DNA of 64,000 nucleotides from an uncultured Lutibacter sp. (lineage in GTDB: Bacteria; Bacteroidota; Bacteroidia; Flavobacteriales; Flavobacteriaceae): NCBI GenBank assembly GCA_964342295.1, contig CAYFFC010000001.1:72453-136452 (forward strand). Direction: 5' to 3'. Positions 25,112-48,901 of this stretch are shown here, one piece after another (the stretch's first letter is position 1; the number at the start of each line of letters is the position of its first letter). The notes beneath the pieces were generated by a model. The model was not told where the DNA came from. It made no database searches and worked only from the letters and a program-made list of their open reading frames with translations. A program made the translations under genes and the position numbers.

Positions 25112-25723
25112 TTAAATAAATGACACTGCTCCTGTTGCAACATTATAATTAGCTCCAACAATTTTTATTTCGCCATTCTTTTCCATTTCATTTAAAATTG
25201 GACTTTCTTCTTTTATTCTTTCTATTGAATGAGCAATATTTTTTAATGTAACTTCTTCAATTTGTCCATCTGTCATTTCAGATCCATCTTTTCGAATTTC
25301 ACTTACAGCTGGTTTAATTTTATCTAATAAAGTTGTGATGTTTCCTAACTCAACATCTTTACATGCTGCTGTAACTGCACCACATTTTGTGTGTCCTAAA
25401 ACTACAAGTATCTTGGATCCGGCTACTTTACATGCATATTCCATTGAACCTAATACATCTTCATTTACTACATTTCCCGCTACTCTAACACTAAAAAGAT
25501 CTCCAATTCCTTGATCAAAAACTAATTCAGCTGGTACACGAGAATCTATACAACTTAAAATAACTGCAAACGGGTATTGACCTGAGCTAGTATCGCCTAC
25601 TTGTTCTATTAAATTTCTATTTGCTTTTAAATTTTTTTGAAATCGTAAGTTTCCTTCTTTTAAAAATTGTAATGACTTTTCAGGAGTCATTGTTGCTTGT
25701 GTTTCTTTTGTATGTGCTTTCAT
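25112..25723 (-). CDS. Beta-carbonic anhydrase (copy 1)
   Basis: Zn motifs LSCIDSRVP and GHTKCGAV; VRVAGN; GSMEY. Confidence 0.93.
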   Translation of the reverse strand: MKAHTKETQATMTPEKSLQFLKEGNLRFQKNLKANRNLIEQVGDTSSGQYPFAVILSCIDSRVPAELVFDQGIGDLFSVRVAGNVVNEDVLGSMEYACKVAGSKILVVLGHTKCGAVTAACKDVELGNITTLLDKIKPAVSEIRKDGSEMTDGQIEEVTLKNIAHSIERIKEESPILNEMEKNGEIKIVGANYNVATGAVSFI

Positions 25724-31767: not shown

Positions 31768-32382
31768 ATGAGAACACAAACTAAAGAAACTCAAGAAAAT
31801 TTGACTCCAAAATTAGCACATGATATTTTGGTTCAAGGAAATAATCGATTTGTTGAAAACTTAAAGGCGCAAAGAAATCTGAAAGACCAAGTTTTTGAAA
31901 CCAGTAAAGGCCAATACCCTTTTGCGGTTATATTAAGCTGCATAGATTCAAGGGTACCCGCTGAAATTGTTTTTGACCAAGGTATTGGTGATATTTTTAG
32001 CGTGCGTGTTGCCGGTAATATTGTAAACGAAGATATTTTAGGTTCTATGGAATACGCCTGTAAAGTAGCAGGATCAAAAATAGTAGTGGTAATGGGTCAT
32101 ACAAAATGTGGCGCAGTTACATCGGCTTGTCAAGGCGTTGAGCTGGGAAATATTACACCGTTACTTGAAAAAATAAAACCGGCCGTTAATTCAATAAAAA
32201 AAGATGATACCGCATTAACTAATGAGCAAATTGAAGAAGTTGGTGCAATAAATGTTAATTTATCTATTGAAAAGATAAGAGAAGAAAGTCCGATTCTTGC
32301 AGAAATGGAGAAAAACGAAGAAATTGAAATTGTAGGGGCAACTTATGATGTGCATACTGGCAAAGTAACGTTTTTTGATTAA
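31768..32382 (+). CDS. Beta-carbonic anhydrase (copy 2)
   Basis: LSCIDSRVP and GHTKCGAV; close paralogue of the gene at 25112-25723. Confidence 0.93.
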   Translation: MRTQTKETQENLTPKLAHDILVQGNNRFVENLKAQRNLKDQVFETSKGQYPFAVILSCIDSRVPAEIVFDQGIGDIFSVRVAGNIVNEDILGSMEYACKVAGSKIVVVMGHTKCGAVTSACQGVELGNITPLLEKIKPAVNSIKKDDTALTNEQIEEVGAINVNLSIEKIREESPILAEMEKNEEIEIVGATYDVHTGKVTFFD

Positions 32383-34390: not shown

Positions 34391-34424
34391 AAAAACGCCC
34401 TTGAATTTTCGAGGGCGTTTTTTT
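34391..34424. terminator. Bidirectional terminator (lepA / ferredoxin)
   Basis: aaaaacgcccttga-N4-tcgagggcgttttttt. Confidence 0.85.
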
Positions 34425-34442: not shown

Positions 34443-34793
34443 CTATTCGTTATGCAACCAAGCTTTTTTAGCCAATAATTGCTCTTCAGTTTCTTCGTGA
34501 TCCTCATCAGGAACACAACAATCAACCGGACAAACAGATGCACATTGTGGTTCATCATGAAAACCTTTACACTCAGTACATTTATCTGTTACAATAAAGT
34601 AAAATTCATCCGATATAGGTTCATTCATTTCGTCAGCATCAGCCTCACCACCTCCCGGTAGCGTAATAGTTCCGCTTAAAGCTGTTTCTTCTGAATAGGC
34701 CCACTCGCTATCCGGTTCATAAATTGCATTATTAGGACATTCTGAAATACATGCATCACAATTTATGCATTCGTCAGTAATTTTAATAGCCAT
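34443..34793 (-). CDS. 2[4Fe-4S] ferredoxin (YfhL/Alvin-type, strongly acidic)
   Basis: CINCDACISECP and CTECKGFHDEPQCASVCP. Confidence 0.93.
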   Translation of the reverse strand: MAIKITDECINCDACISECPNNAIYEPDSEWAYSEETALSGTITLPGGGEADADEMNEPISDEFYFIVTDKCTECKGFHDEPQCASVCPVDCCVPDEDHEETEEQLLAKKAWLHNE

Positions 34794-34824
34794 CTCTTGT
34801 AATTTTTAATATTTATTTATTTCG

Positions 34825-34897
34825 CAAATTTATATAAATTCATTTAACTCAAAGTGACAAAAATCATATCCTGACATAAAAAGTAATTTTATCTTTG
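34825..34897. promoter_or_regulatory. Divergent promoters for ferredoxin (-) and korA (+) with a central FNR/CRP-like box
   Basis: TAAATTTG on the minus strand (34825-34832), GTGAC-AAAA-ATCAT (34854-34867), TATCTTTG (34890-34897). Confidence 0.6.
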
Positions 34898-34978
34898 GCA
34901 CTTAAAATTTGAGCATACAATAATTTTCTATAATTTTAAAAAATATAAAGTTAATATTTTTTTTTAAATAAGCATATT

Positions 34979-36835
34979 ATGACAAAAGCGAAAGCACCTC
35001 ATCATACCGAAATGCTCGAAACTGTAGTGATACGTTTTGTTGGTGATTCAGGAGATGGTATGCAACTTACCGGTACACAATTTTCCGGAACATCGGCCAT
35101 GTTTGGAAACGACATTGCAACTTTTCCAAACTATCCTTCTGAAATTAGAGCACCGCAAGGAAGTTTGTACGGTGTTTCTGGATTTCAGGTACATATTGGA
35201 AGTGTTGAAATAAGTACTCCGGGAGACAATTTAGATTTATTGGTGGCAATGAATCCGGCCGGTTTAAAAACTAATTTACACGCCGTAAAACCGGGTCATA
35301 CCATTATTGTTGATACCGATGCCTTTACCAAGAAAAATCTTGAAAAAGCTGAGTATGACGCAAATCCGCTTGAAGATGGCAGCTTAGATAATTACAGGGT
35401 AATTGAAGTTGCCATGACTTCATTAACAAAATTAGCTGTTAAAGATGTTGAAGGTTTAGACAATAAATCTATTACTCGTAGTAAAAACATGTTTGCCTTA
35501 GGAATGGTATATTGGATGTATAACAGATCTACTGATCATACCATCGAGTTTTTTCAAAATAAGTTTAAGTCAAAACCGCATATTGTTGAAGCCAATACAA
35601 AAGTGTTAAATGCCGGCTTTAACTTTGCGAATACTTTAGAATTAATACCTAATTCTTATACTATCTCACCTGCAGAAATGCCGGCAGGTACATACAGAAT
35701 TATAATGGGTAATACCGCAACGGCTTGGGGATTTTTAGCGGCCGCAGAAAAATCGGGCTTAGAATTGTTTTTAGGTTCGTATCCTATTACCCCTGCCACA
35801 GATATCTTGCATGAAATAGTTAAACACAAACACTTTGGTGTAAAAGCATTCCAGGCCGAAGATGAGATTGCCGGTATTGCATCATCTATTGGTGCTTCAT
35901 TTGCCGGTGATTTAGCTATTACTACAACTTCAGGTCCCGGCTTAGCCCTAAAAGGTGAAGCCATTGGCTTGGCGATGATGATTGAGTTACCGTTAGTAAT
36001 TGTAGATGTTCAACGTGGTGGCCCTTCAACCGGTTTGCCTACTAAAACAGAACAATCTGATTTGCTACAAGCTCTTTACGGAAGAAATGGTGAGAGCCCG
36101 GTAATTGTTATTGCAGCCAGTACACCGGCCAATTGCTTTAATTTTGCTTATGAAGCTGCCAAGCTAACTTTAGAACATATGACTCCGGTTATATTGTTAA
36201 CAGATGGTTATATTGCTAACGGTTCTGCTCCGTGGAAAATCCAATCAGTTTCAGAAATGCCTGAGATTAAAACTAATTTTGTAAAAGAAGCTACAGAAAA
36301 CTGGCATCCTTATGATAGAGATAACGCTACTCTTGCCAGAAATTGGGCAGTACCCGGAACACCAGGGTTGGAGCATCGTGTAGGAGGCTTAGAAAAAGAT
36401 GGTATTACCGGTAATGTTTCGTATGTACCGGAAAATCATGAAAAAATGACGCAAATAAGGGCTGAAAAAATTAAGCGTGTTCAAAATTACATTCCTGAAA
36501 TTGTTCCTGAATTTGCCCAAGAGGGCGATTTGTTGGTTGTTGGTTGGGGAGGTACATACGGTACCTTACATTCTGCTGTGAAACAAATGAATGAAGAAGG
36601 ATACCAAAATATTGGTTTTGCGCATTTCAACTATATAAATCCACTTCCAAAAAATACAGCAGACTTATTTAAAAAGTATAAGAATATTATTGTTTGTGAA
36701 TTAAACAGCGGACAGTTTGCAAAAGTACTGAAGATGAATTTTAATGGAATTGTATTTAATCAGTTTAATAAAGTTCAAGGATTACCATTTGGTAATAATG
36801 AATTAATCGAAAAATTTAAACATTTTGTAAATTAA
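34979..36835 (+). CDS. korA: 2-oxoacid:ferredoxin oxidoreductase alpha subunit (gamma-alpha fusion; 2-oxoglutarate or pyruvate)
   Basis: GDSGDGMQL, YPITPA, QAEDEIAG, TTSGPG, QRGGPSTGLPT. Confidence 0.9.
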   Translation: MTKAKAPHHTEMLETVVIRFVGDSGDGMQLTGTQFSGTSAMFGNDIATFPNYPSEIRAPQGSLYGVSGFQVHIGSVEISTPGDNLDLLVAMNPAGLKTNLHAVKPGHTIIVDTDAFTKKNLEKAEYDANPLEDGSLDNYRVIEVAMTSLTKLAVKDVEGLDNKSITRSKNMFALGMVYWMYNRSTDHTIEFFQNKFKSKPHIVEANTKVLNAGFNFANTLELIPNSYTISPAEMPAGTYRIIMGNTATAWGFLAAAEKSGLELFLGSYPITPATDILHEIVKHKHFGVKAFQAEDEIAGIASSIGASFAGDLAITTTSGPGLALKGEAIGLAMMIELPLVIVDVQRGGPSTGLPTKTEQSDLLQALYGRNGESPVIVIAASTPANCFNFAYEAAKLTLEHMTPVILLTDGYIANGSAPWKIQSVSEMPEIKTNFVKEATENWHPYDRDNATLARNWAVPGTPGLEHRVGGLEKDGITGNVSYVPENHEKMTQIRAEKIKRVQNYIPEIVPEFAQEGDLLVVGWGGTYGTLHSAVKQMNEEGYQNIGFAHFNYINPLPKNTADLFKKYKNIIVCELNSGQFAKVLKMNFNGIVFNQFNKVQGLPFGNNELIEKFKHFVN

Positions 36836-36837
36836 TT

Positions 36838-37851
36838 ATGGAAACAACTGCAGAAAAAAAATATACGTTTAAGGATTTTTCAAGCGATCAAGAAGTTCGT
36901 TGGTGCCCTGGTTGTGATGACTATGTTATTTTACGCTCAATGCAAAAGGCATTACCCGAAATGGGTGTAAAAAGAGAAGATGTAGTTTTTATTTCAGGTA
37001 TTGGATGTTCTTCACGGTTTCCATATTATATGAATACTTACGGAATGCATAGTATTCATGGCAGGGCTCCCGGAATTGCTTCAGGTGTAAAACTGGCAAA
37101 CCCCAACCTTAGTGTTTGGGTAATGACCGGTGATGGTGATGCCATGGCAATTGGTGGTAACCATTTTATTCATGTATTGAGAAGAAATATCGACTTGAAT
37201 ATTGTATTATTTAATAATGAAATTTATGGATTAACTAAGGGTCAGTTTTCACCAACTTCTCTAGTTGGTCAAAAAACAAAATCTTCGCCTTACGGAAATA
37301 CACAACCTCCGTTTCAACCTGGAGAGCTTGCTTTAGGGGCTCAAGCACGTTTTTTTGCACGTATTGGCGGAAACAACCCTAAAGATATGTCGAATATTTT
37401 TGTTGAAGCACACAAATTTAAAGGAACATCATTAATTGAGGTATTGCAAAATTGTGTGATTTTTAATGATGGTTGCTTTACAAATGTTACAGACAAGAAC
37501 GTTAAAGCCGACAAACAAATTTATTTGGAACACGGCAAGCCTATGATATTTGGTAAAAACAAAGATAAAGGACTTGTTTTAAATGGACTAAAATTAGAAG
37601 TTGTTACTATAGGTGAAAATGGTATTACAGAAGATGATATATTAGTACATAATGCCAAGGAAAAAGACCTAACCTTACATCAAATGTTGGTAAGATTAGA
37701 ATATCCTTTGGCAACAGGTATTATTAGAAGTTGTGATGATGTAACACTTGAAGAACACGAAAATGAACTTACGGAACAAGTTAAAGCCAATTCAAAATTC
37801 ACCAAAACCGATGATTTGTTTTTCTCCGGAGAAACCTATGAAGTTAAATAA
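36838..37851 (+). CDS. korB: 2-oxoacid:ferredoxin oxidoreductase beta subunit (TPP-binding)
   Basis: WCPGC, SGIGCSSR, HGRA, GDGD...GGNH, NNEIYGLTKGQ. Confidence 0.9.
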   Translation: METTAEKKYTFKDFSSDQEVRWCPGCDDYVILRSMQKALPEMGVKREDVVFISGIGCSSRFPYYMNTYGMHSIHGRAPGIASGVKLANPNLSVWVMTGDGDAMAIGGNHFIHVLRRNIDLNIVLFNNEIYGLTKGQFSPTSLVGQKTKSSPYGNTQPPFQPGELALGAQARFFARIGGNNPKDMSNIFVEAHKFKGTSLIEVLQNCVIFNDGCFTNVTDKNVKADKQIYLEHGKPMIFGKNKDKGLVLNGLKLEVVTIGENGITEDDILVHNAKEKDLTLHQMLVRLEYPLATGIIRSCDDVTLEEHENELTEQVKANSKFTKTDDLFFSGETYEVK

Positions 37852-37913
37852 TATATTAATATAGATGATAAAACAATAAGTTTAATTCTTTTAAATCTAA
37901 CTTTAATTAACAT

Positions 37914-38264
37914 ATGGGATCGGAAGCCATTATTGTATTTTTAATTGCCGGTATTGTTCTAGTTGCCGGAGCCAATTTTTTGTCGGGAATCATCTCTCAT
38001 AAATCCGACAATCCTCAAAAAAGAGAACCTTATGAAAGCGGTATGGTTACCATAGGCCCCACTTGGGTTCAATTTAAAGTTGGTTATTATTTATTTGCCG
38101 TTTTATTCTTAATTTTTGATGTAGAGGTGGCATTTCTAATTCCTTGGGCTGTAGTTTATAAAAGCATAGGAGCTATTGCATTTTTTGAGGTTTTAATATT
38201 TCTTATAATTTTAGGATTAGGCTTAGCCTATGCATGGAAAAAAGGAGCTTTACAATGGAAATAA
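37914..38264 (+). CDS. nuoA: Complex I subunit A
   Basis: [25 protein letters not shown]. Confidence 0.95.
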
Positions 38265-38815
38265 AAAACAATAATACCATTCCTGAAGATTTCCCGGGAA
38301 AAGTAATCCCGGCAGGTAATGGAGCAAACGTAATTGTTACGTCATTAGATAAAATAATAAACTGGGGGCGATCAAATTCATTATGGTCATTATACTTTGG
38401 AACCAGTTGCTGTGCAATTGAAATGATGCAAACAGGAGCTGCACGTCATGATTATTCTCGATTTGGATTTGAAGTTGCCAGACCTTCTCCAAGACAAGCC
38501 GATTTAATTATTATTGCCGGTACAATTGTTAACAAAATGGCACCGGTATTAAGGCGATTATACGACCAAATGGCAGAACCTAAATATGTGATTGCCATGG
38601 GTGCTTGTGCAATTTCAGGTGGACCATTTTTTTACAATACTTATTCTGTAGTTAAGGGCGCAGACCATGTAATTCCGGTTGATGTATATGTACCGGGTTG
38701 CCCGCCACGCCCAGAAGCGTTGCTTGAAGGCATGCTTATGCTTCAGGATAAAATCAGAAAAGAAAGTTTAAAGCACAAAATTAATCCTGTTGAAGGTTTT
38801 GATGAAGGTAAATAA
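38255..38815 (+). CDS. nuoB: Complex I subunit B
   Basis: [30 protein letters not shown]; start taken at MEIKNN, overlapping the nuoA stop. Confidence 0.96.
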
Positions 38816-38823
38816 TTTATAAA

Positions 38824-39300
38824 ATGACAAAAGAAGCATTACAAAAATTAATAAGTTCATGGTTTTCAAACTCTTCAGAAGCGGGATTGAGCTTTTTTAC
38901 GGAAGGATCAGAATTTTTAAATGTTGAAATCCAACCTGAATATTTACATAATTTTATGCATCAACTCAAAAATGAGCAAGAAACCTGTTTCGATTATTTA
39001 TTTTGCTTAACCGGGGTTGATTGGGGTAAAGAATTAGGAGTGGTTTACCACTTAGAATCAACAACATTAAGACACTCAATTGTTGTTAGAGTTAAAACCA
39101 ATGACCGTGAAAATCCGGCGATAGATACTGTTTCTGATATTTGGGCTACTGCCGAATTTCATGAGCGTGAAGTTTACGATTTTTTTGGTATTAAGTTTAA
39201 CAATCACCCAAATTTAAAACGCCTTTTCTTAACAGATGAATGGTCTGGATTTCCCTTAAGAAAAGATTATGAAGATGAAATCAATATGGTTATTAAATAA
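38824..39300 (+). CDS. nuoC: Complex I subunit C
   Basis: FDYLFCLTGVD, EREVYDFFGI, HPNLKRLFL, PLRKDY. Confidence 0.94.
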   Translation: MTKEALQKLISSWFSNSSEAGLSFFTEGSEFLNVEIQPEYLHNFMHQLKNEQETCFDYLFCLTGVDWGKELGVVYHLESTTLRHSIVVRVKTNDRENPAIDTVSDIWATAEFHEREVYDFFGIKFNNHPNLKRLFLTDEWSGFPLRKDYEDEINMVIK

Positions 39301-39306
39301 ATAAAA

Positions 39307-40128
39307 ATGAAAAAAAAATACACATTCATTATTTTAATAGTATTTGTTTTTAGTTTAATCTCATGTAAAAACAATGAACCAAAAGTTCCGGAAAAGAACT
39401 TTATAGCTAAACAACATAAAGCTGATGATGCCGTTAAACATTGGAGTTATGAAGGAGAAACTTCTCCTGAACATTGGGCAGAAATTGAAAAACACTCTAA
39501 TTGTGCCGGTAAAAAACAATCGCCTATTAATATCATTGATATAGATTCAAAGTATGTCTCAAAAGACAGTTTAAACTTAAAAGTTTATTGTTACACTCAA
39601 ACAATAATTCATGATGTAGTAAACAATGGGCATTCTGTACAGTTTGATTTTGAATTAGGAGATTCTATTATTGTTAAAAATGAAACTTTCCATTTAAAAC
39701 AAATTCACTTTCATGAACCTTCAGAACATACAATTGACGGTATTAGATACCCAATTGAAATTCATTTAGTGCATGCCAATAAAAAAGGAGAATATACGGT
39801 ATTAGGCATTCTAGGAAAAGAAGGAAAAGAACATGAGGACTTTGAATTTTTAGAAATGTTTTTGCCTGTTAAAAATGGTGAAACTAAAGCTATTGACAAG
39901 CCTTTTGACTTAAAAACAATCTTTCCGGCAAATATCGATGACTATTATTCTTATAAAGGCTCTTTAACAACACCTCCTTGTAGTGAAACAGTAGATTGGG
40001 TGGTGTTTAAAAATCCAATTGTTCTGTCGGTAAATCAAGTTTTAAAATTAAAGAAAAATATGCCTTTGAATAACTATAGAAATGAACAACCAATAAATGA
40101 TAGAGAGGTTATTAAAACATTTAACTAA
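39307..40128 (+). CDS. Alpha-carbonic anhydrase, predicted lipoprotein, inside the nuo operon
   Basis: Lipobox LISC; HWSYEG, QSPINI, NNGHS, QIHFH, SEH, EIHLVH, GSLTTPPCSE, N-x-R-x-x-QP motifs. Confidence 0.93.
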   Translation: MKKKYTFIILIVFVFSLISCKNNEPKVPEKNFIAKQHKADDAVKHWSYEGETSPEHWAEIEKHSNCAGKKQSPINIIDIDSKYVSKDSLNLKVYCYTQTIIHDVVNNGHSVQFDFELGDSIIVKNETFHLKQIHFHEPSEHTIDGIRYPIEIHLVHANKKGEYTVLGILGKEGKEHEDFEFLEMFLPVKNGETKAIDKPFDLKTIFPANIDDYYSYKGSLTTPPCSETVDWVVFKNPIVLSVNQVLKLKKNMPLNNYRNEQPINDREVIKTFN

Positions 40129-40133
40129 AAATT

Positions 40134-41255
40134 ATGCAAACAACTTCTGTAAATAATAACTTTAAATCAGAAGAGTACTTCATCAATATGGGGCCTCAAC
40201 ATCCTGCTACACACGGAGTTTTAAGGCTGTTACTAACTATAGATGGTGAAATTATTAAAAAAGTAGAACCCGATTTAGGTTATATTCATCGCTCCATTGA
40301 AAAAATGTGTGAACGCGACAGTTATCAGCAAATAGTTCATTTAACTGACAGAATGGATTATCTTTCTTCACATATTAACAATGAAGCTGTTTGTCTTACT
40401 GTTGAAAAGGCATTGCAACTGGAAGTTCCTGAACGTGTTAAAGTAATTAGAACTATTATTGGTGAACTTACCAGAATAGCATCGCATTGCCTGTGGTGGG
40501 GTGTAATGGGAATGGATGTAGGTGCACTAACCACCTATTTTTACGGTTTTAGAGATCGTGAAATGATAAATGATATTTTTGAAGAAACTTGTGGTGCCAG
40601 ATTAACGATGAATTATAACATCCCTGGGGGATTAATGTTCGACATTCATCCTAACTTTGTGAAACGTACCAAAGCATTTGTAAAACACTTTAAAACCAAA
40701 ATCCCGGAATACGACAGGCTGTTAACCGGCAATGTTATATTTCAAAAAAGAACTAAAGGTGTGGGTGTTTTAACAAAAGAAGATGCTATTTCATTTGGCG
40801 CTTCAGGACCTGTTGCTAGAGGCTCAGGTTATTCTTGTGATGTACGAAAACATCATCCGTATAGCGCTTACAGCAATGTAAAATTTAATGAAGCCCTCCA
40901 AACTACCGGTGATACTTTTGCGCGTTATCAAGTACGTATACAAGAAATGTGGGAGTCGCTATCAATTATTGAACAATTAATAGACAATATACCCGACGGA
41001 GATTATAAAACTGCAACCAATACAGTAATTAAACTCCCTAAAGGAGAGTATTACCAAAAAGTTGAAACTGCTCGTGGAGAGTTGGGCGTATTTATTATTA
41101 GTACAGGAATAAAAAACCCATATCGATTGAAGTTTCGTTCTCCGGGGTTCTCAAACTTGTCATTGTTAAATCATATTACAGCAGGTGGTAAAATTGGAGA
41201 TTTAGTAGCTACTATGGCAACTTTAGATCTTGTAATACCTGATATAGACAGATAA
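40134..41255 (+). CDS. nuoD: Complex I subunit D
   Basis: GPQHPATHGVLRL, GYIHRSIEK, DRMDY, ETARGE; no NiFe CxxC motifs. Confidence 0.96.
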   Translation: MQTTSVNNNFKSEEYFINMGPQHPATHGVLRLLLTIDGEIIKKVEPDLGYIHRSIEKMCERDSYQQIVHLTDRMDYLSSHINNEAVCLTVEKALQLEVPERVKVIRTIIGELTRIASHCLWWGVMGMDVGALTTYFYGFRDREMINDIFEETCGARLTMNYNIPGGLMFDIHPNFVKRTKAFVKHFKTKIPEYDRLLTGNVIFQKRTKGVGVLTKEDAISFGASGPVARGSGYSCDVRKHHPYSAYSNVKFNEALQTTGDTFARYQVRIQEMWESLSIIEQLIDNIPDGDYKTATNTVIKLPKGEYYQKVETARGELGVFIISTGIKNPYRLKFRSPGFSNLSLLNHITAGGKIGDLVATMATLDLVIPDIDR

Positions 41256-41265
41256 AATAAAACAT

Positions 41266-42330
41266 ATGATTTCATTTTTAAGTATCACAAATAATATTCA
41301 CAATTGGTTGTTAAACTTCTTTTCTGAAAGTACCACCAGTTATATTGAAATGGTGTTAATTGCATTGGTTTATTTGGCCGTATTTGCGGTATTAGGGCTC
41401 TATTTAGTACTCCTTGAAAGAAGAGTGGCTGCCTGGTTTCAGCTAAGAATTGGTCCAAATCGTGTTGGTTTCCAAGGATTACTTCAAACTATGGCCGATG
41501 CACTTAAACTGGTTTCAAAAGAATTAACAGGAACAGTTAAAGCAGATAAATTTTTGTACAATTTAGCACCCTATTTTGTTATTGTCTCATCTTTAATGGC
41601 TTTGTCAGTATTTCCTTTTACCCAAAATTTACAGGCTTTTGACATAAATATCGGAATCTTTTTTTTAATTGCAATTTCATCAATTGGTGTTATTGGAATT
41701 TTATTGGGAGGTTGGGCTAGTAATAACAAATTTGCCCTAATAGGTGCTATGCGTAGTGGCGTACAAACCATAAGTTATGAACTTTCTGTTGGTTTGTCTT
41801 TACTAACCATGATATTGTTAACAGGGACCTTACAACTTTCTGAAATTATTGAAGTGCAAAAAAACGGATGGCTAATAGTACAAGGCCATGTACCGGCTGT
41901 AATTGCATTTATGATTTATATGATTTCCGGAACGGCAGAAACTAACAGGGCACCTTTTGATTTGGTTGAAGCAGAATCAGAACTTGGAGCAGGATTTCAT
42001 ACCGAGTATTCAGGTATGAAATTTGCCTATTTCTTTTTGGCCGAATTTATTAACATGTTTATAATTGCAGCTATAGCAACTACAATATTTTTTGGTGGTT
42101 GGCTATCGCCTTTTGGAATAACAGAGTCCATTCCTTGGTTAGGAGTTTTTTGGTTTTTAGCTAAAACTTTTGTCATTGTGTTTTTAATGATGTGGTTTCG
42201 ATGGACTTTCCCACGTTTACGTGTAGATCAGCTATTAACATTGGAATGGAAATACCTGCTACCACTTAACCTGTTGAACATAGTGCTTATGGCGCTAATT
42301 GTTTGGCTTAATTTAACCATTCAGTTTTAG
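41266..42330 (+). CDS. nuoH: Complex I subunit H
   Basis: ERRVAAWFQLRIGPN, ADALKL, SYE, AETNRAPFDL, TEYSG, FPRLRVDQ. Confidence 0.96.
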   Translation: MISFLSITNNIHNWLLNFFSESTTSYIEMVLIALVYLAVFAVLGLYLVLLERRVAAWFQLRIGPNRVGFQGLLQTMADALKLVSKELTGTVKADKFLYNLAPYFVIVSSLMALSVFPFTQNLQAFDINIGIFFLIAISSIGVIGILLGGWASNNKFALIGAMRSGVQTISYELSVGLSLLTMILLTGTLQLSEIIEVQKNGWLIVQGHVPAVIAFMIYMISGTAETNRAPFDLVEAESELGAGFHTEYSGMKFAYFFLAEFINMFIIAAIATTIFFGGWLSPFGITESIPWLGVFWFLAKTFVIVFLMMWFRWTFPRLRVDQLLTLEWKYLLPLNLLNIVLMALIVWLNLTIQF

Positions 42331-42335
42331 AGTTT

Positions 42336-42812
42336 ATGAGTTATTTTGGAGATATATACAAAGGAATAAAAACGTTGTTAACCGGAATGAGTATCACCGG
42401 GAAATACTTCTTAAATTCAAGACGAGGAGCAATTACGCAACAATACCCAGATAATAGGGCAACCCTAAAAATGTTTGAGCGCTTTAGAGGCGAAGTTGTA
42501 ATGCCTCATGATGAAAATAATGAGCACCGCTGTACCGGATGCCAAAAGTGTGAAATTGCTTGCCCCAATGGTACTATTGAAATTGTTTGGGACAGAATAA
42601 TAGATCCTGAAACCGGAAAAAAGAAAAAAGTTATTGATAAACATATTTACCATTTAGGCATGTGTACCATGTGTGGGCTGTGTATTGAAGCTTGCCCAAC
42701 CGATGCTATAGTATGGGCTCAAAATTTTGAAAATTCTGTGTACGATAGAACACAATTAACAAGAGTTTTAAACAAACCCGGATCTAAACTAAAACCCGGT
42801 GTAGAAGAATAA
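42336..42812 (+). CDS. nuoI: Complex I subunit I (2x 4Fe-4S)
   Basis: CTGCQKCEIACP and CTMCGLCIEACP. Confidence 0.95.
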   Translation: MSYFGDIYKGIKTLLTGMSITGKYFLNSRRGAITQQYPDNRATLKMFERFRGEVVMPHDENNEHRCTGCQKCEIACPNGTIEIVWDRIIDPETGKKKKVIDKHIYHLGMCTMCGLCIEACPTDAIVWAQNFENSVYDRTQLTRVLNKPGSKLKPGVEE

Positions 42813-42816
42813 GCTT

Positions 42817-43332
42817 ATGGAGAAAATTATATTTTACATTTTAGCATTTATAATGATTGTGTTTGCTATTGCCTCTGTAAGCAGTAGAAAAATGCTACGT
42901 TCGGTAATTTATTTGTTATTTACTTTAATTGGTATTGCCGGGCTTTATTTTTTAATTGATTATAACTTTTTGGCAGCCATTCAATTAACTGTTTACGCAG
43001 GTGGTATTATTGTATTAATAATATTCTCTGTGCTATTAGTACATCATATAGAATTGAAATTAGAGATTGCCAAAAAATCAAAACAATTTTTAGCATTAAT
43101 TGCTTGTGCAATAGGTTTAGGATTATTTTTAACAACAATACATTCTTTTAATTTTTCAGTTTCTAACAAATCTGTTTCAACCTCCACAAGTGAGATTGGA
43201 ACTTTATTGCTAAGTTATAAGGAGGGCGGATTTATTTTGCCATTTGAAGTTGTAAGTGTATTGCTGTTGGCAGCAATGATTGGAGCAATTATTATAGCTA
43301 AGGGAACATTAACAAAATCACCAAAAAAATAA
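42817..43332 (+). CDS. nuoJ: Complex I subunit J
   Basis: QLTVYAGGIIVL, LPFEVVSVLLLAAMIGA. Confidence 0.93.
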   Translation: MEKIIFYILAFIMIVFAIASVSSRKMLRSVIYLLFTLIGIAGLYFLIDYNFLAAIQLTVYAGGIIVLIIFSVLLVHHIELKLEIAKKSKQFLALIACAIGLGLFLTTIHSFNFSVSNKSVSTSTSEIGTLLLSYKEGGFILPFEVVSVLLLAAMIGAIIIAKGTLTKSPKK

Positions 43333-43336
43333 CAAA

Positions 43337-43654
43337 ATGATAGCCGAAGTAAGTATCTACGAACTATTAACACTAACCTCCATCATATTTTTTATAGGTG
43401 TATATGGTTTTTTGACCAGAAAAAATTTAATTTCAATTTTAATTTCAATAGAACTTATTTTAAATGCAACAGTTATAAACTTTGTTGTAATAAATAAATA
43501 CCTATATCCTGATATGTTACAAGGAGTGGTTTTTGCCATTTTCATAATTGCTGTTGCAGCCGCCGAAACGGCGCTGGCTGTTGCATTAATTATTAATTTA
43601 TACAGGCAATTAAACTCTGTTGAAGTAAAAGAAACCGAATCATTGAAGTACTAA
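43337..43654 (+). CDS. nuoK: Complex I subunit K
   Basis: SIELILNA, VAAAETA. Confidence 0.93.
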   Translation: MIAEVSIYELLTLTSIIFFIGVYGFLTRKNLISILISIELILNATVINFVVINKYLYPDMLQGVVFAIFIIAVAAAETALAVALIINLYRQLNSVEVKETESLKY

Positions 43655-43666
43655 ATATTTATAAAA

Positions 43667-45586
43667 ATGAATCTAAAATTTATCTTTTTAATTCCATTAA
43701 TTCCGTTAGCGGTATTTTTAGTACTCGGAATTTTTAATAAAAAAATTAAACCGAATATCTCAGGTTACATTGGCGTTTTAGGATTACTTGTTTCTGGAGT
43801 ATTATCATTTATAACGGCATATCAATATTTCTTTGTTTCAGAAAAACTCAATGGTATTTATCAAACTTTTGTTGATAAAACCGTTTGGATGAATTTTACA
43901 GATACGCTAAGAATTGATATGGGAGTTCTTATTGACCCTATATCTGTGATGATGCTTATTGTTGTTTCTATAGTATCCTTAATGGTGCACATATACAGTA
44001 GAGGTTATATGAAAGGTGATGAAGGTTACACCAAATTCTTTGCCTTTTTATCTTTATTCTCTTTCTCTATCTATGGTTTAGTACTGGCTACTAATTTATT
44101 TCAAATTTATATTTTTTGGGAATTGGTGGGTGTTTCATCCTATTTACTTATAGGTTATTATTACACAAAACCATCGGCAGTTGCAGCAGCAAAAAAGGCA
44201 TTTATTGTAACGCGTTTTGCCGATTTAGGGTTTTTAATTGGTATATTAACCATTGGTTATTATACCGGTACTTACGATTTTGAAACTTTAAATAATCCTG
44301 AAGGTTCTGCTATTTTAAATTGGGCTGCTACATCATTTATGGGGCTATCAGCTATTACTTGGGCACTCATTTTAATATTTATTGGTGGGGCAGGTAAATC
44401 GGCTATGTTCCCTTTACACATTTGGTTGCCCGATGCTATGGAAGGGCCTACTCCGGTTTCAGCATTAATTCATGCAGCTACTATGGTTGTTGCAGGTGTT
44501 TATTTAGTGGCGCGCTTATTTCCTATGTTCTATTTTGTTGAAGAAGGATTTGCTTTAAATATTGTAGCTTATGTAGGCGCGTTTTCATCATTGTTTGCGG
44601 CGGTAATTGCAATTACACAAACCGATATAAAACGAGTGTTGGCTTTTTCAACTATGTCGCAACTTGGTTATATGATGCTTGGCTTAGGTGTATCGGGATA
44701 TGAGGGGCACGAAGGAGTTGGCTATATGGCTTCTATGTTTCATTTGTTTACACATGCTATGTTTAAGGCGTTATTGTTTTTAGGAGCAGGTTCCGTAATT
44801 CACGCAGTACACAGCAACTACTTAAAAGATATGGGCGGTTTACGAAAGTACATGCCTATTACAAATATTACTTTTTTAATTGCTGCAATTGCTATAGCAG
44901 GTGTACCCCCATTTGCAGGCTTTTTTAGTAAAGATGAAATTTTAATCGCAGCTTTTGAGCATAACAAAATTATATATGTTATCGGATTATTTGTAGCGGG
45001 CTTAACAGCTTTTTATATATTCAGAATTTACTTTGGAATATTTTGGGGTAAAGAAAATAAGTACGAACATACTCCGCATGAATCACCGGTTTCAATGACC
45101 TTCCCTTTGCTTGTTTTAGCATTTTTAAGCATTTCTGTCGGTTTTATTCCTTTTAGCAACTTTGTTACTGCAGATAAGGCCGGTTTTGAAGCGCACTTAA
45201 ACTATCCAATGGCTGTTATTGCAGTTGCTGTAGGACTAATTGGAATTGCCTTAGCTTGGGTTTTTTATAAAAAAGAAAATAATTTATCTAATCGCTATGC
45301 TAAAGCGTTTGGAATCTTTTACAAATGGGCAAGTGATAAATTTTATTTTGATGAAATTTACCTATTCATCACCAAAAAAATTCTATTTAAAAGAGTTGCG
45401 GCTCCAATAGCAAAATTTGATAAAAAATATGTTGATGGCACTATGGAAGGCATTGGTAATAAAACAGCAGTAACCTCAGAAAAAATAAAAGGATTACAAT
45501 CCGGAAGAATACAAGACTATGCCTATGCATTTGTAATGGGAGTTGTTATAATTGGATTGGTTTTTATTTATTTATGGACAAGTTAG
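43667..45586 (+). CDS. nuoL: Complex I subunit L
   Basis: WELVG, KSAMFPLHIWLPDAMEGPTPVSALIHAATMV, STMSQLG, HAMFKALLF; lateral helix region present. Confidence 0.96.
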   Translation: MNLKFIFLIPLIPLAVFLVLGIFNKKIKPNISGYIGVLGLLVSGVLSFITAYQYFFVSEKLNGIYQTFVDKTVWMNFTDTLRIDMGVLIDPISVMMLIVVSIVSLMVHIYSRGYMKGDEGYTKFFAFLSLFSFSIYGLVLATNLFQIYIFWELVGVSSYLLIGYYYTKPSAVAAAKKAFIVTRFADLGFLIGILTIGYYTGTYDFETLNNPEGSAILNWAATSFMGLSAITWALILIFIGGAGKSAMFPLHIWLPDAMEGPTPVSALIHAATMVVAGVYLVARLFPMFYFVEEGFALNIVAYVGAFSSLFAAVIAITQTDIKRVLAFSTMSQLGYMMLGLGVSGYEGHEGVGYMASMFHLFTHAMFKALLFLGAGSVIHAVHSNYLKDMGGLRKYMPITNITFLIAAIAIAGVPPFAGFFSKDEILIAAFEHNKIIYVIGLFVAGLTAFYIFRIYFGIFWGKENKYEHTPHESPVSMTFPLLVLAFLSISVGFIPFSNFVTADKAGFEAHLNYPMAVIAVAVGLIGIALAWVFYKKENNLSNRYAKAFGIFYKWASDKFYFDEIYLFITKKILFKRVAAPIAKFDKKYVDGTMEGIGNKTAVTSEKIKGLQSGRIQDYAYAFVMGVVIIGLVFIYLWTS

Positions 45587-45616
45587 TAGTGATAAAAATA
45601 ATTAGAAAATAGAAAT

Positions 45617-47104
45617 ATGGATATATTATCTCTTTTTGTAGTTGTACCTATAATAACCATTTTAGTATTGGTTTTTACCAAGGGGCTTAAACAGGCTCGT
45701 ATAGTATCAATGCTTGGCAGCTTGGTGCAACTTGCAATGGCCATTAATTTAGTTTTTGCCTACCTAAATGAAAGGGCAGTAAACAACGCAATTATGTTAT
45801 TTACCAAAAATGTGGTTTGGTTTAAACAATTTAATATTCACTACAGTATTGGTGTTGATGGTATTTCGGTTTCCTTACTATTACTAACAGCAATAGTTGT
45901 ATTGGCAGGGGTATTTATTTCATGGAAAATGAAAGATCTGCCTAAAGAGTTTTTCATTTCATTATTAGTTTTAGCAACCGGCGTTTACGGGTTCTTTATT
46001 TCTATTGATTTGTTTACGCTTTTTGTGTTTTATGAAATTGCAGTTATTCCAATGTATCTTTTAATTGGTATTTGGGGCTCAGGAAGAAAAGAATATTCGG
46101 CAATGAAACTAACGCTAATGTTAATGGGTGCATCTGCAATTTTATTAGTCGGAATTTTAGGGATTTATTTCAATTCAAATGCAGATGGAGGAGCGCTAAC
46201 TTTTAATATTTTAGAAATTGCCCAAGTAAACATTCCTGCTGAAGCTCAAAAATTATTTTTCCCTCTTACGTTTATTGGATTTGGGGTTTTAGGCGCTTTA
46301 TTCCCTTTTCACACTTGGTCACCTGATGGGCATGCTTCTGCCCCTACAGCAGTTTCCATGTTACATGCAGGTGTACTTATGAAATTGGGTGGTTATGGAA
46401 TTTTTAGGGTCGCTATGTATTTATTACCTATTGGGGCTTTAGACTGGTCATGGGTATTTATAATATTATCTGCAACAGGAGTTATTTATGGTGCCTTTGG
46501 TGCAATAAAACAAACCGATTTAAAATATATAAACGCTTACTCTTCAGTTAGTCACTTAGGTATGGTTCTATTCGCCCTATTAATGTTAAATAAAACTGCT
46601 TGGAATGGCGCCATTTTACAATCACTCTCTCACGGATTTATGACAGCCTTGTTTTTTGCACTGATTGGTATGATTTATGGGCGAACACATACAAGAGATG
46701 TCACAAAATTAGGAGGTCTGTTAAAAGTAATTCCTTTTATATCTGCAATATATGTTATTGCCGGAATGGCATCTTTAGGCTTACCCGGTTTTAGCGGTTT
46801 TGTAGCAGAGATGAATATTTTTGTAGGTGCCTTTGAACACGATAATTTATTTTACAGAATTGCAACCATTATTTCGGTTTCTGCCATTGTTGTAACTGCG
46901 GTTTATATTTTAAGAGTTGTAGGTATAATGCTTATGGGTCCTGTTAAAAACGAACAATTTTTAACCTTACAAAAAGTAACTTGGTTCGAAAAATTTGGAA
47001 TTTTATTGTTGTTAATTCCAATAGTTGGAATGGGAGTAGCCCCTTTATGGTTAAGCGAAATGATTTTAGAAAGTGTGCAACCTTTTATTAGTGTAATTGT
47101 TTAA
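45617..47104 (+). CDS. nuoM: Complex I subunit M
   Basis: GVDGIS, FYE...PMY, PFHTW, HASAPT, LMKLGGYG, YSSVSH, LGLPG. Confidence 0.95.
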   Translation: MDILSLFVVVPIITILVLVFTKGLKQARIVSMLGSLVQLAMAINLVFAYLNERAVNNAIMLFTKNVVWFKQFNIHYSIGVDGISVSLLLLTAIVVLAGVFISWKMKDLPKEFFISLLVLATGVYGFFISIDLFTLFVFYEIAVIPMYLLIGIWGSGRKEYSAMKLTLMLMGASAILLVGILGIYFNSNADGGALTFNILEIAQVNIPAEAQKLFFPLTFIGFGVLGALFPFHTWSPDGHASAPTAVSMLHAGVLMKLGGYGIFRVAMYLLPIGALDWSWVFIILSATGVIYGAFGAIKQTDLKYINAYSSVSHLGMVLFALLMLNKTAWNGAILQSLSHGFMTALFFALIGMIYGRTHTRDVTKLGGLLKVIPFISAIYVIAGMASLGLPGFSGFVAEMNIFVGAFEHDNLFYRIATIISVSAIVVTAVYILRVVGIMLMGPVKNEQFLTLQKVTWFEKFGILLLLIPIVGMGVAPLWLSEMILESVQPFISVIV

Positions 47105-47145
47105 AGCGTGATGAAGTTCATCCTTAAAAAAGAATATTAAATACT

Positions 47146-48573
47146 ATGAGCCTGAGTAATTTTTTATTAATGCAGCAGGAAATTTTATTATTGTTAATAA
47201 TTTTAACCTTAATTATTGCTGAAATTTTTATTTCAAAAAATAAAAAAGCAAGCATTATTCACATTGCAATTTTACTATTTGGAATCCATACAACACTTGG
47301 GTTTTTTACGAGTACCGAAGGGTATCTGTTTGGAGGAACATTTAAAACCAACAATTTCATTTACTTTTTTAAGAATGTATTAAATGTTGGAGTATTTATT
47401 ATCCTATTGCAATCGGCAGATTGGATAAAACAAAAATTATTTACTCAAGACAGGGGTACTGAATTTTTTATATTGCTTTTTTGTTCGCTCTTAGGGATGT
47501 ATTTTATGATCTCATCGGGAGATTTTTTAATGTTTTATTTAGGTCTGGAACTTTCTACATTACCTGTAGCAGCACTGGCAGCTATTGAAACCTCTAAGCG
47601 AATTTCAAATGAGTCGGGGTTAAAATTAATTTTATCTGCTGCATTGGCATCCGGAGTTTCGTTATTTGGTATTTCATTACTATACGCAACTTCAGGCTCT
47701 ATTTATTTTGATATTATTTCAACTAATATTGTATCAAATAACTTAACCATTTTAGCATTTTTACTGTTTTTTGCCGGATTGGCTTTTAAAATTTCATTAG
47801 TGCCTTTCCACTTTTGGACAGCAGATGTGTATGAAGGAGCGCCTATAGGAATAGCCTCGTATTTATCGGTAATTTCAAAAGGTGCGGCTGTTTTCATTTT
47901 AATGACCTTATTATTTACCGTTTTAAAACCACTAATGTCTACTTGGGAGCCCCTACTATATGGGTTGGCAATTGCTACTATGTTTATTGGCAACTTATTT
48001 GCCTTGCGCCAAAAAAATATGAAACGTTTTTTAGCATTTTCATCTATAGCTCAAGCCGGTTTTATCTTATTGGGCTTAATTACGGGAAATCAACTTGGAG
48101 TGGCAACCGTTATTTATTTTGTAATGATTTATGTCTTTTCAAACCTGGCTGCTTTTGGGGTGGTTCAAACCATATCATTAAAAACAGGTAAAGAGTTAAT
48201 GAGTGATTATGAAGGTTTGTATAGAACAAACCCAAACTTGAGTTTGGTGATGATGCTAGCCTTATTCTCATTAGCAGGAATACCTCCGGTAGCTGGATTC
48301 TTTGGTAAATTTTTCCTTTTCACAGCAGCAGCAAGTAAAGGATATTATTTACTGGTTTTTATCGCCGTTGTTAACGTTACAATTTCATTATACTATTATT
48401 TACTTGTTATTAGAGCTATGTTTTTGAGAAAAAGCGATACCCCTATACCCTTTTTTAAAAATAAACTGTATATGCGTGTTGGCTTATTAATTACCGTTAT
48501 TGGTATTGTAGTATTAGGATTGTACAGTCCGGTTTATGAATATATTTATGAATTAAGCAGTATTTTTAATTAA
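47146..48573 (+). CDS. nuoN: Complex I subunit N
   Basis: LGLELS, FKISLVPFHFWTADVYEGAP, KRFLAFSSI, LAGIPP. Confidence 0.95.
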   Translation: MSLSNFLLMQQEILLLLIILTLIIAEIFISKNKKASIIHIAILLFGIHTTLGFFTSTEGYLFGGTFKTNNFIYFFKNVLNVGVFIILLQSADWIKQKLFTQDRGTEFFILLFCSLLGMYFMISSGDFLMFYLGLELSTLPVAALAAIETSKRISNESGLKLILSAALASGVSLFGISLLYATSGSIYFDIISTNIVSNNLTILAFLLFFAGLAFKISLVPFHFWTADVYEGAPIGIASYLSVISKGAAVFILMTLLFTVLKPLMSTWEPLLYGLAIATMFIGNLFALRQKNMKRFLAFSSIAQAGFILLGLITGNQLGVATVIYFVMIYVFSNLAAFGVVQTISLKTGKELMSDYEGLYRTNPNLSLVMMLALFSLAGIPPVAGFFGKFFLFTAAASKGYYLLVFIAVVNVTISLYYYLLVIRAMFLRKSDTPIPFFKNKLYMRVGLLITVIGIVVLGLYSPVYEYIYELSSIFN

Positions 48574-48577
48574 AACT

Positions 48578-48901
48578 ATGAGCTTACAAGGAAAACATTT
48601 ATTTGGCAGTATTGGAGATACAAGAGTAACTTTTGTTGAAAAAAAGGTAGATGAAAACAGAAAAAACTTTTTAGAAACCTTATTAAAACACAATGGTTTT
48701 GAAGTAATTGTGCAAGAAGAAAAAAGAAAATCGGAAGAAGAACCTCAATTATATACCATTGGTGTTACCGATATGGTTTTTAACCCAACCATTTATATTT
48801 TTGAACGCAAATTAAAAACTTTTGACGGAAGAAAAGTTACACAAGATTATTGGTTTCAAAGAACCGAAACTACCAATCCTCAATATTGGAAAAACGATTA
48901 A
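48578..48901 (+). CDS. Hypothetical soluble protein co-transcribed after nuoN
   Basis: 107 aa, starts 4 nt after the nuoN stop, no TM segment, host-like codon use; no family recognised. Confidence 0.7.
   Translation: MSLQGKHLFGSIGDTRVTFVEKKVDENRKNFLETLLKHNGFEVIVQEEKRKSEEEPQLYTIGVTDMVFNPTIYIFERKLKTFDGRKVTQDYWFQRTETTNPQYWKND

Follow-up and report, generated by a model that had tools for sequence, protein, structure and literature searches.

A stretch of 64,000 nucleotides from the genome of an uncultured Lutibacter sp. (family Flavobacteriaceae; GCA_964342295.1), spanning positions 72453-136452 of contig C1 (CAYFFC010000001.1) and referred to below, at its full length, as the window, contains a string of 15 co-oriented plus-strand genes that extends from 34979 to 48901 in the window's own numbering. 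In that string korA and korB, which encode a 2-oxoacid:ferredoxin oxidoreductase (KorAB), are followed by nuoABC, the gene for an alpha-carbonic anhydrase (alpha-CA), nuoDHIJKLMN, and a small gene of no known family, here designated orf107; a ferredoxin gene, fdx, is divergent from korA (Table 1). The nuo genes specify a complex I without the NuoE, NuoF, and NuoG proteins (the N-module)—that is, a headless Nuo. The electron donor of such complexes in the Bacteroidota is a long-standing puzzle, to which the present module offers a testable genomic clue. The gene identities were obtained from a six-frame list of open reading frames (ORFs) combined with Pfam and NCBIfam scans; the genome comprises 2.36 Mb in 71 contigs and is 95% complete.

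Table 1. Features of the module, followed by the neighboring beta-carbonic anhydrase genes and by the genome's proteins with a PF01512 domain. Positions are those of the window, except where another contig is named.
Feature	Position	Strand	Description
Hairpin terminator	34391-34422		Strong, bidirectional; separates lepA (+) from fdx (-), which converge on it; delimits the module on the left
fdx	34443-34793	-	116-aa Alvin/YfhL-type 2[4Fe-4S] ferredoxin; divergent from korA
fdx/korA divergent promoter region	34794-34978		185 nt; -7 boxes and dyad
korA	34979-36835	+	618 aa; fused gamma and alpha subunit of the two-subunit 2-oxoacid:ferredoxin oxidoreductase
korB	36838-37851	+	337 aa; beta subunit, TPP-binding
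nuoA	37914-38264	+	PF00507
nuoB	38234-38815	+	Pfam; start placed at 38255 by public gene calls
nuoC	38824-39300	+	Pfam and NCBIfam scans
Alpha-carbonic anhydrase	39307-40128	+	273 aa; PF00194; between nuoC and nuoD
nuoD	40134-41255	+	Pfam and NCBIfam scans
nuoH	41266-42330	+	Pfam
nuoI	42336-42812	+	Pfam; two CxxCxxCxxxCP motifs
nuoJ	42817-43332	+	Pfam
nuoK	43337-43654	+	Pfam
nuoL	43667-45586	+	Pfam
nuoM	45617-47104	+	Pfam
nuoN	47146-48573	+	Pfam
orf107	48578-48901	+	Starts 4 nt after nuoN; no family
Beta-carbonic anhydrase paralogue	about 25112-25723	-	Upstream of lepA
Beta-carbonic anhydrase paralogue	31768-32382	+	Upstream of lepA
PF01512 protein 1	C55		RnfC; gene order and sizes point to an operon of the rnfBCDGEA type; family test on RnfC only
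PF01512 protein 2	C11, 46.8-51.7 kb		NuoE-NuoF fusion; the adjacent gene encodes an FdhA-like molybdoenzyme of 904 aa whose N-terminal domains are NuoG-like
PF01512 protein 3	C24, 32.1-33.8 kb		Orphan NuoE-NuoF fusion, cut by the contig end
PF01512 protein 4	C44, 13.2-17.2 kb		HoxF-like, beside a HoxU/HoxY fusion and an NiFe large-subunit gene

None of the intergenic gaps in the string exceeds 62 nt: the spacers are of 2 nt between korA and korB, 62 between korB and nuoA, 8 between nuoB and nuoC, 6 and 5 on the two sides of the alpha-CA gene, 10 (nuoD-nuoH), 5 (nuoH-nuoI), 4 (nuoI-nuoJ), 4 (nuoJ-nuoK), 12 (nuoK-nuoL), 30 (nuoL-nuoM), 41 (nuoM-nuoN), and 4 nt (nuoN-orf107), with nuoA and nuoB overlapping by 31 nt. 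An earlier note on this DNA had described the genes from korA to orf107 as co-oriented, closely packed, and uninterrupted by any evident terminator, and fdx as diverging from the same promoter region, which description was borne out by the ORF list and a hairpin scan: no terminator-like hairpin lies between the genes, and the 185-nt spacer shared by fdx and korA carries one -7 box of the TAnnTTTG type per strand, TAAATTTG at 34832-34825 on the minus and TATCTTTG at 34890-34897 on the plus strand. The sole strong hairpin is the one at the left border, with a 14-bp stem, 6 GC pairs, and T and A runs flanking both sides. Weak sites otherwise numbered 15 in the terminator scan, as compared with 10 +/- 3.9 in shuffled sequences; those on the plus strand were all within coding sequence, and 3' of orf107 we found nothing more than a weak, AT-rich hairpin with a T run behind it.

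The earlier note had named a terminator or transcription start between korB and nuoA among the findings that would refute its reading. We saw no terminator there, the 62-nt spacer folding no better than its shuffled counterparts (z = +0.87), and no Bacteroidetes -7 box is present within this gap. The tight spacing, together with the absence of both a terminator and a -7 box from the korB-nuoA gap, makes it likely, on sequence grounds, that in this genome the genes from korA through orf107 are co-transcribed. Among the Lutibacter congeners the same spacer ranges from 28 to 196 nt, and in two of them (loci in G007 and G018, in our own numbering of the genomes) a perfect -7 box, TACTTTTG, is located ~25 nt upstream of nuoA, so that an additional nuo promoter is possible in those species. 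A scan for sigma-70-type promoters returned 61 sites versus 67.5 +/- 8.5 expected, a scan of this kind being uninformative for a Bacteroidota genome.

At the exact midpoint of the divergent fdx and korA -7 boxes lies a dyad, GTGACAAAAATCAT (34854-34867), that is conserved across Lutibacter species and that, as a speculation, might be a candidate operator for a regulator of the Crp/Fnr type. The corresponding pattern, GTGAYN4RTCAY, occurs at 5 sites in the genome as against ~16 expected per strand, 4 of the 5 being non-coding; one of the sites is situated 56 nt upstream of an ORF on contig C48 that we judged by eye to be SulP-like. A regulon for the dyad was considered and discarded because five sites are too few to define one and the flanking genes are heterogeneous.

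Candidate electron-input genes and the missing dedicated N-module

The KorA protein matched TIGR03710 with 645 bits (cut-off 483), and KorB gave a TPP_enzyme_C match along with a PorB_KorB score of 244 bits, slightly below the cut-off of 262. We took as a KorAB-type enzyme one with an alpha subunit carrying the POR (gamma), POR_N, and PFOR_II domains, a beta subunit with a TPP-binding domain, and no delta subunit; by its domains and the TIGR03710 match the enzyme of the window is accordingly a two-subunit 2-oxoacid:ferredoxin oxidoreductase of the 2-oxoglutarate:ferredoxin oxidoreductase (OGOR) type. The solved structure nearest to KorA is the OGOR of Magnetococcus marinus (6N2N; E = 6.6e-72), and on the basis of the nearest characterized homologues the substrate is most likely 2-oxoglutarate. 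The ferredoxin, for its part, belongs to the YfhL-family dicluster ferredoxins (NF033683; 94.5 bits, cut-off 86), has a pI of 4.05, and matched the structures of the A. vinosum (1BLU/3EXY), P. aeruginosa (2FGO), and T. aromatica (1RGV) ferredoxins and of E. coli YfhL (2ZVS). The alignment with the A. vinosum protein contains the CxxCxxCxxxCP and CxxCx8CxxxCP motifs as well as the HEETE tail; the alignments to these structures nevertheless fall into two blocks, with an acidic insert of ~30 aa (residues 31-60) between the halves that constitutes a departure from the family.

All 11 core subunits, NuoABCDHIJKLMN, were matched by Pfam, and the operon therefore encodes the complete core of complex I. 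NuoB exhibits the N2-cluster motifs, VPGCPP included; NuoB and NuoI retain all the ligands of their clusters (N2 in the former; N6a and N6b in the latter); and the motifs for the Fe-S clusters and the quinone site are intact in NuoB, NuoD, and NuoI, the last of these being the exposed electron entry point in a headless complex. The operon contains no NuoE, NuoF, or NuoG, in which respect it is not a canonical 14-subunit Nuo; nor did we find a second nuo operon when all the proteins of the window were compared by blastp with all the ORFs of the 95%-complete genome. The contention of the earlier note that nuoE, nuoF, and nuoG are absent thus stands in that the single nuo operon lacks a dedicated N-module, but not in the wider sense, for NuoE-, NuoF-, and NuoG-like proteins of other enzymes are present: four proteins of the genome possess the NuoF FMN domain (PF01512), each one either in the context of another enzyme or as an orphan (Table 1). 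In the Hox-like NiFe hydrogenase on C44, the HoxU and HoxY parts are joined in a single protein of 420 aa.

The relatives are more decisive on this point, inasmuch as PF10589, the Fe-S domain of NuoF, is missing in the complete module-bearing genomes G099, G376, G451, and G108, which absence indicates that the complex exists and is maintained without a NuoF-type partner. A canonical nqrABCDEF-apbE operon, for which the earlier note had recommended a search, was found in the genome, so that the oxidation of NADH is covered by an NADH:quinone oxidoreductase that translocates Na+ (Na+-NQR). The genome furthermore includes three genes for catalytic subunits of the heme-copper-oxidase family, and a 2-oxoglutarate dehydrogenase.

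The last gene of the string, orf107, is conserved as a twelfth gene in this Nuo clade: all the members examined have it after nuoN, among them G061, G118, and G175, whose korAB is elsewhere, whereas the Nuo of G428 and G320, which is more distant, has none there. Its product is predicted to be soluble, has no cysteines, belongs to no Pfam or NCBIfam family, and in a profile search of the Protein Data Bank (PDB) obtained a best E of 0.6. The AlphaFold2 model, which is a confident one (pLDDT 85.7, pTM 0.74), is a small alpha/beta domain with no significant neighbor by Foldseek among the PDB entries, the subunits of complex I and of the type-1 NAD(P)H dehydrogenase-like complex (NDH-1) included, the best match being ACT/PII-like at E = 0.21. 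The locus does not have the character of a cyanobacterial-type NDH-1, orf107 being unlike NdhS, NdhV, and NdhO, for which proteins the remainder of the genome was not screened. Among 1.84 billion proteins the orf107 family has 127 representatives at 50% identity, about 105-145 aa in length, with conserved GVTDxxFNP and YWxQ blocks, a variable linker rich in Pro, Ala, and Glu, and no conserved cysteine. That orf107 could serve as a simple basic docking pad for the acidic ferredoxin was an idea that we dropped, as a pI of 6.75 gives it no support.

Conservation of the linkage and the inserted carbonic anhydrase

To the survey of korAB-nuo linkage across the Bacteroidota that the earlier note had proposed, the answer was affirmative: in Lutibacter, korB lies 350-550 nt upstream of nuoB, by coordinates, in all 22 of the genomes having nuoB, and the linkage recurs in at least five further families, in three layouts overall. 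The full layout—fdx divergent from korAB-nuoA..N-orf107—was read in Lutibacter G014, G018, and G022 as well as on partial contigs of G007 and G009, and gene by gene in two other genera of the Flavobacteriaceae, represented by G099 (Gillisia/Salegentibacter) and G435 (Aegicerativicinus sediminis), the korB-nuoB spacing of G376 and G451 matching by coordinates only. The same layout was also read in G108, of the family f3, and in G294 (f22), of another order; and in the Cyclobacteriaceae it is present in G276, with no fdx within 2.6 kb upstream, and by coordinates only in G515. In G428, a distant Bacteroidota genome (locus L053, C3:291000-310000), by comparison, fdx, korA, korB, and nuoA..N are all co-directional, the Nuo proteins are 37-59% identical, and a second korB is located elsewhere, while in G505 and G465 korAB and nuoA..N are oriented away from each other on the two sides of one spacer. 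The three layouts unite the KorAB and Nuo systems at protein identities of 37-60%, and that three arrangements should join the same two systems suggests that the pairing itself is selected for, more than that synteny was simply inherited. A functional link between korAB and nuo would on these comparative grounds appear far likelier than chance, which conclusion we regard as supported.

RnfC was not found in G099, G376, G435, or G108. In three of these genomes—G099, G376, and G108—a NuoF-type protein is missing as well, so that the ferredoxin of KorAB and the Nuo complex are there left without another known partner: a producer of reduced ferredoxin with no known sink and a complex I with no known donor are placed in one and the same operon.

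The presence of an alpha-CA gene within nuo, unlike the rest of the string, is peculiar to this species. The protein is an alpha-CA by its match to PF00194 (2.3e-50, over 252 of 254 profile positions), and we read from its sequence both a PROSITE-type zinc signature, SEHTIDGIRYPIEIHLV, and a lipoprotein-type leader, MKKKYTFIILIVFVFSLISC, ending in FSLISC; it is on that evidence a putative exported, periplasmic lipoprotein, with a catalysis that is likewise predicted. In the relatives with the korAB-nuo operon, nuoC is directly followed by nuoD with no alpha-CA between them, and neither in 40 relatives nor in 31 homologous loci of the genome collection does any carbonic anhydrase adjoin nuo; of the alpha-CA copies of the two nearest relatives, one is beside a LytTR two-component system and the other beside lysS. 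We accordingly rejected the notion that the enzyme is a general part of the module, there being no nuo-adjacent homologue in the relatives. We also rejected that of an assembly artefact because the order nuoC-CA-nuoD, with an identical protein, was recovered on 17 contigs from independent assemblies—including two Logan runs and two metagenome assemblies, one of these from TARA Oceans—from which coincidence we conclude that the arrangement is real. To judge from these comparisons the insertion is recent and species-specific, and a 10-nt direct repeat, GGTTATTAAA, found at 39288-39297 (the 3' end of nuoC) and again at 40107-40116 (near the 3' end of the alpha-CA gene), may be its microhomology footprint. 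The alpha-CA is presumably co-expressed with nuo. Together with the two beta-carbonic anhydrase paralogues upstream of lepA, which are 70% identical, it brings to three the number of carbonic anhydrase genes within 15 kb.

The proposed electron route and its alternatives

We consider it probable, if by no means certain, that the module is a self-contained respiratory input in which electrons pass from a 2-oxoacid through KorAB and ferredoxin to the headless Nuo and on to menaquinone, with the pumping of protons. The proposal builds on the gene identities, the intact cofactor motifs, the operon-like packing, the lack of a dedicated N-module, and the deep linkage through several layouts; the substrate of KorAB, the transfer from ferredoxin to Nuo, the co-transcription, and the roles of orf107 and of the alpha-CA are what we infer. 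KorAB would oxidize the 2-oxoacid, most likely 2-oxoglutarate, and hand the electrons to the product of the neighboring fdx, an acidic 2[4Fe-4S] ferredoxin of the Alvin type, which carrier, once reduced, would dock at the exposed NuoI/NuoB/NuoC/NuoD face of the 11-subunit complex. The electrons would then proceed through N6a, N6b, and N2 to menaquinone—the quinone of the Flavobacteriaceae—while the membrane arm, formed by NuoH/A/J/K and NuoL/M/N, would pump protons. The resulting menaquinol would be reoxidized by the oxidases of the organism, for which the three heme-copper-oxidase-family genes are candidate sinks, and NADH would be taken separately by the Na+-NQR. The orf107 product might be a soluble accessory, either as a docking or stabilizing subunit or as an assembly factor, and the alpha-CA would probably interconvert CO2 and bicarbonate on the side that receives the pumped protons. 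The assertion of the earlier note that the operon itself identifies its source of electrons gains from the conserved fdx and KorAB neighbors and from the missing N-module, but is to be taken as a reasonable deduction rather than as a result.

A bolder version of this route, to which we would give little credence, makes a single physical machine of KorAB, the insert-bearing ferredoxin, orf107, and Nuo: a proton-pumping 2-oxoglutarate:menaquinone oxidoreductase in which orf107 would be the adaptor in place of the N-module and, in this species, the periplasm-facing carbonic anhydrase would couple the interconversion of CO2 and bicarbonate to the pumped protons. Bacteria would thereby have an analogue of the modules for carbonic anhydrase that are attached to complex I in plant mitochondria and to NDH-1 in cyanobacteria.

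Several observations weigh against the KorAB-ferredoxin-Nuo route. Rnf, an alternative sink for ferredoxin, is also encoded in this genome, and with a 2-oxoglutarate dehydrogenase present KorAB is not the sole route for that substrate; the coexistence of both with the module means that the route would have others beside it and would perhaps be employed when oxygen is low. The NCBIfam models resolve KorAB only to the 2-oxoacid:acceptor oxidoreductase subfamily, the sequence leaving the substrate specificity undefined. In most of the Bacteroidota families sampled the two loci are unlinked, including the Bacteroidales-like family f38, whose loci we read in G320. A Lutibacter genome that is 99% complete, G005, has korB without nuoB, from which we gather that KorAB is not strictly dependent on Nuo. 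The fdx gene is not beside korAB in G061, G067, G320, G276, and G505; and in some congeners a -7-like box precedes nuoA, at the end of a spacer whose length varies from 28 to 196 nt. In G118, fdx adjoins korAB with nuo unlinked. In G024, according to the search rows, the korB beside nuoB has four in-frame stops (1 TAG and 3 TAA), with nuoB intact; it is possible that G005 and G024 are natural uncoupling events.

Most of these same points—the Rnf of this genome, the retention of korAB without nuo in G005, the unlinked loci of most families, the fdx that is not always beside korAB, and the possible nuoA-proximal promoter of the relatives—would be accommodated if korAB/fdx and nuo merely shared a location or a regulation, the latter responding for instance to oxygen or to carbon, with no electrons passing between them. 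The ferredoxin would then serve Rnf, biosynthesis, or other acceptors, and Nuo would have a different donor or else act as a cation/proton converter, as for Prevotella, where an antiporter-like role has been considered (PMC6560451). Co-regulation alone, however, poorly explains three layouts at 37-60% identity; in G099, G376, and G108, which have neither Rnf nor a NuoF-type protein, the two systems would be partnerless unless they served each other; and the motifs for Fe-S clusters and the quinone, intact as they are in NuoB, NuoD, and NuoI, argue for a redox enzyme. We thus look on such a mere neighborhood as unlikely.

The earlier note had also raised the idea that the complex might run in reverse, the proton motive force (pmf) driving electrons from menaquinol through Nuo to ferredoxin, and if this were the main job of the module KorAB would be a 2-oxoglutarate synthase acting on succinyl-CoA and CO2, with the carbonic anhydrases supplying the CO2. 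The presence of three carbonic anhydrase genes and two SulP genes within 15 kb favors this idea, as does the reversibility of KorAB-type enzymes, which are carboxylases in Bacteroides and in organisms with the reductive TCA cycle (PMC11304471). Nevertheless, single NuoL, NuoM, and NuoN proteins imply the standard four-proton stoichiometry, and by our own estimate such a pump would barely cover the ~0.35-0.45 V uphill from menaquinol to a low-potential Alvin-type ferredoxin. In addition, a 2-oxoglutarate dehydrogenase and oxidases are present; ATP-citrate lyase (PF16114) had no match in the genome, but had none in the controls either; and the alpha-CA is predicted to be exported, not cytoplasmic, and is absent from every relative with the same korAB-nuo operon. 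The reverse mode, possible in principle, is therefore energetically strained and unsupported, and as the principal function we deem it decidedly improbable.

That an N-module might be supplied in trans—a NuoE-NuoF fusion with the NuoG-like FdhA, or HoxFU, docking on the core to make of it an NADH-, formate-, or H2-linked quinone reductase—is suggested by the fusions on C11, beside the 904-aa NuoG/FdhA-like protein, and on C24, and by the HoxF-like protein and HoxU/HoxY fusion on C44. An analogous docking of Hox on cyanobacterial NDH-1 is not known to have been borne out. With the NuoE-NuoF and Hox genes located in enzyme operons of their own, no PF10589 protein in the complete relatives G099, G376, G451, and G108, and a B. 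fragilis Nuo devoid of NADH activity (PMC7002350), we consider this last alternative extremely improbable.

Significance and comparison with known systems

If the KorAB-ferredoxin-Nuo route is true, more energy would be conserved at the 2-oxoglutarate step of the TCA cycle than by way of NADH, the result would extend to the abundant gut Bacteroidales, and orf107 would be a new accessory protein of complex I; the alpha-CA insertion, moreover, constitutes a natural experiment on the handling of CO2 at a proton pump. The module occurs in cultivable marine genera (Lutibacter, Salegentibacter/Gillisia, and Aegicerativicinus), and Maribacter sp. HTCC2170, of which we have the orf107 homologue only, probably belongs with its bearers. 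Several of the genomes, in having neither Rnf nor a NuoF-like protein, offer clean systems for knockouts and membrane assays, so that the finding, unsurprising as it may be to a bioenergeticist, yet turns a puzzle into simple experiments in cultivable strains. The concept of the donor is already published, for Campylobacter, Thermoproteus tenax, and the Zixibacteria; what is new is the operon fusion in the Bacteroidota, orf107 as a conserved twelfth gene without a known fold, and the species-only insertion of the carbonic anhydrase. In the literature searched, the coverage of which was partial, we found no description of the korAB-nuo operon of Flavobacteriia, Cytophagia, or Lutibacter, or of orf107.

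Headless Nuo is a familiar feature of the Bacteroidota. A counterpart is that of Bacteroides, Prevotella, and Phocaeicola, which belong to the same phylum and have the same nuoABCDHIJKLMN set, the Na+-NQR, often Rnf, and a complex for which NADH was excluded as the donor (PMC7002350, PMC6560451). The B. fragilis Nuo, lacking NuoEFG, does not oxidize NADH, and its donor is given as unknown and drawn as 'Xred' (PMC7002350). Unlike in Lutibacter, korAB is unlinked to nuo both in B. fragilis (kor1AB, PMC11304471) and in G320; the Bacteroides-type Nuo has no orf107 after nuoN, and its proteins are ~40-57% identical to those here.

In Campylobacter and Helicobacter, too, a complex I without NuoE and NuoF receives the electrons of 2-oxoacid:acceptor oxidoreductases through a small low-potential carrier and not from NADH: the C. 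jejuni complex uses flavodoxin, fed by the 2-oxoglutarate and pyruvate oxidoreductases (Weerakoon and Olson 2008, as related in PMC4453560 and PMC7002350). It differs from the present system in that the carrier is a flavodoxin, NuoG is kept, two lineage-specific subunits replace NuoE and NuoF, and the oxidoreductase is one of four subunits whose genes are not fused to nuo; the Campylobacter route, furthermore, was tested experimentally, while that of Lutibacter is a proposal drawn from genes. The fqo/oor genes of Thermoproteus tenax (PMC3189178) and the cluster of the Zixibacteria RBG-1 (PMC3903129) are similar to our module in that a 2-oxoacid:ferredoxin oxidoreductase is clustered with a complex I devoid of the N-module, and their authors proposed a feeding into the quinone pool either by ferredoxin or directly (PMC3189178, PMC3903129). 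T. tenax is, however, an archaeon with oor in the middle of fqo, and the Zixibacteria belong to another phylum and have a large cluster of mixed content in which PFOR, Nfn, and Mvh/Hdr also occur; neither includes a dedicated divergent ferredoxin, an orf107, or a carbonic anhydrase, and the role of both has likewise been proposed only.

For the headless NDH-1 of cyanobacteria, ferredoxin is the demonstrated donor, and it has been proposed for others (Schuller et al. 2019, as cited in PMC13040438). The NDH-1 of cyanobacteria and plastids shares the eleven-subunit core, and the CO2-hydrating CupA/B of some forms echoes the carbonic anhydrase gene here. The NDH-1 docking, in contrast, needs NdhS, NdhV, and NdhO, none of which is matched by orf107 in fold; photosystem I is what reduces the ferredoxin, and plastoquinone serves as the quinone; and CupA/B are cytoplasmic and unrelated to the alpha-CA. 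For the first step of the route, finally, there is a precedent in Thauera aromatica, whose two-subunit KorAB is the physiological reductant of an Alvin-type ferredoxin (Dorner and Boll 2002, as reported in PMC9973337). That ferredoxin, whose structure 1RGV stood fifth among the PDB matches of ours (E = 6.6e-15), is a 2[4Fe-4S] protein of the same family without the ~30-aa insert, and feeds benzoyl-CoA reductase and not a respiratory complex.

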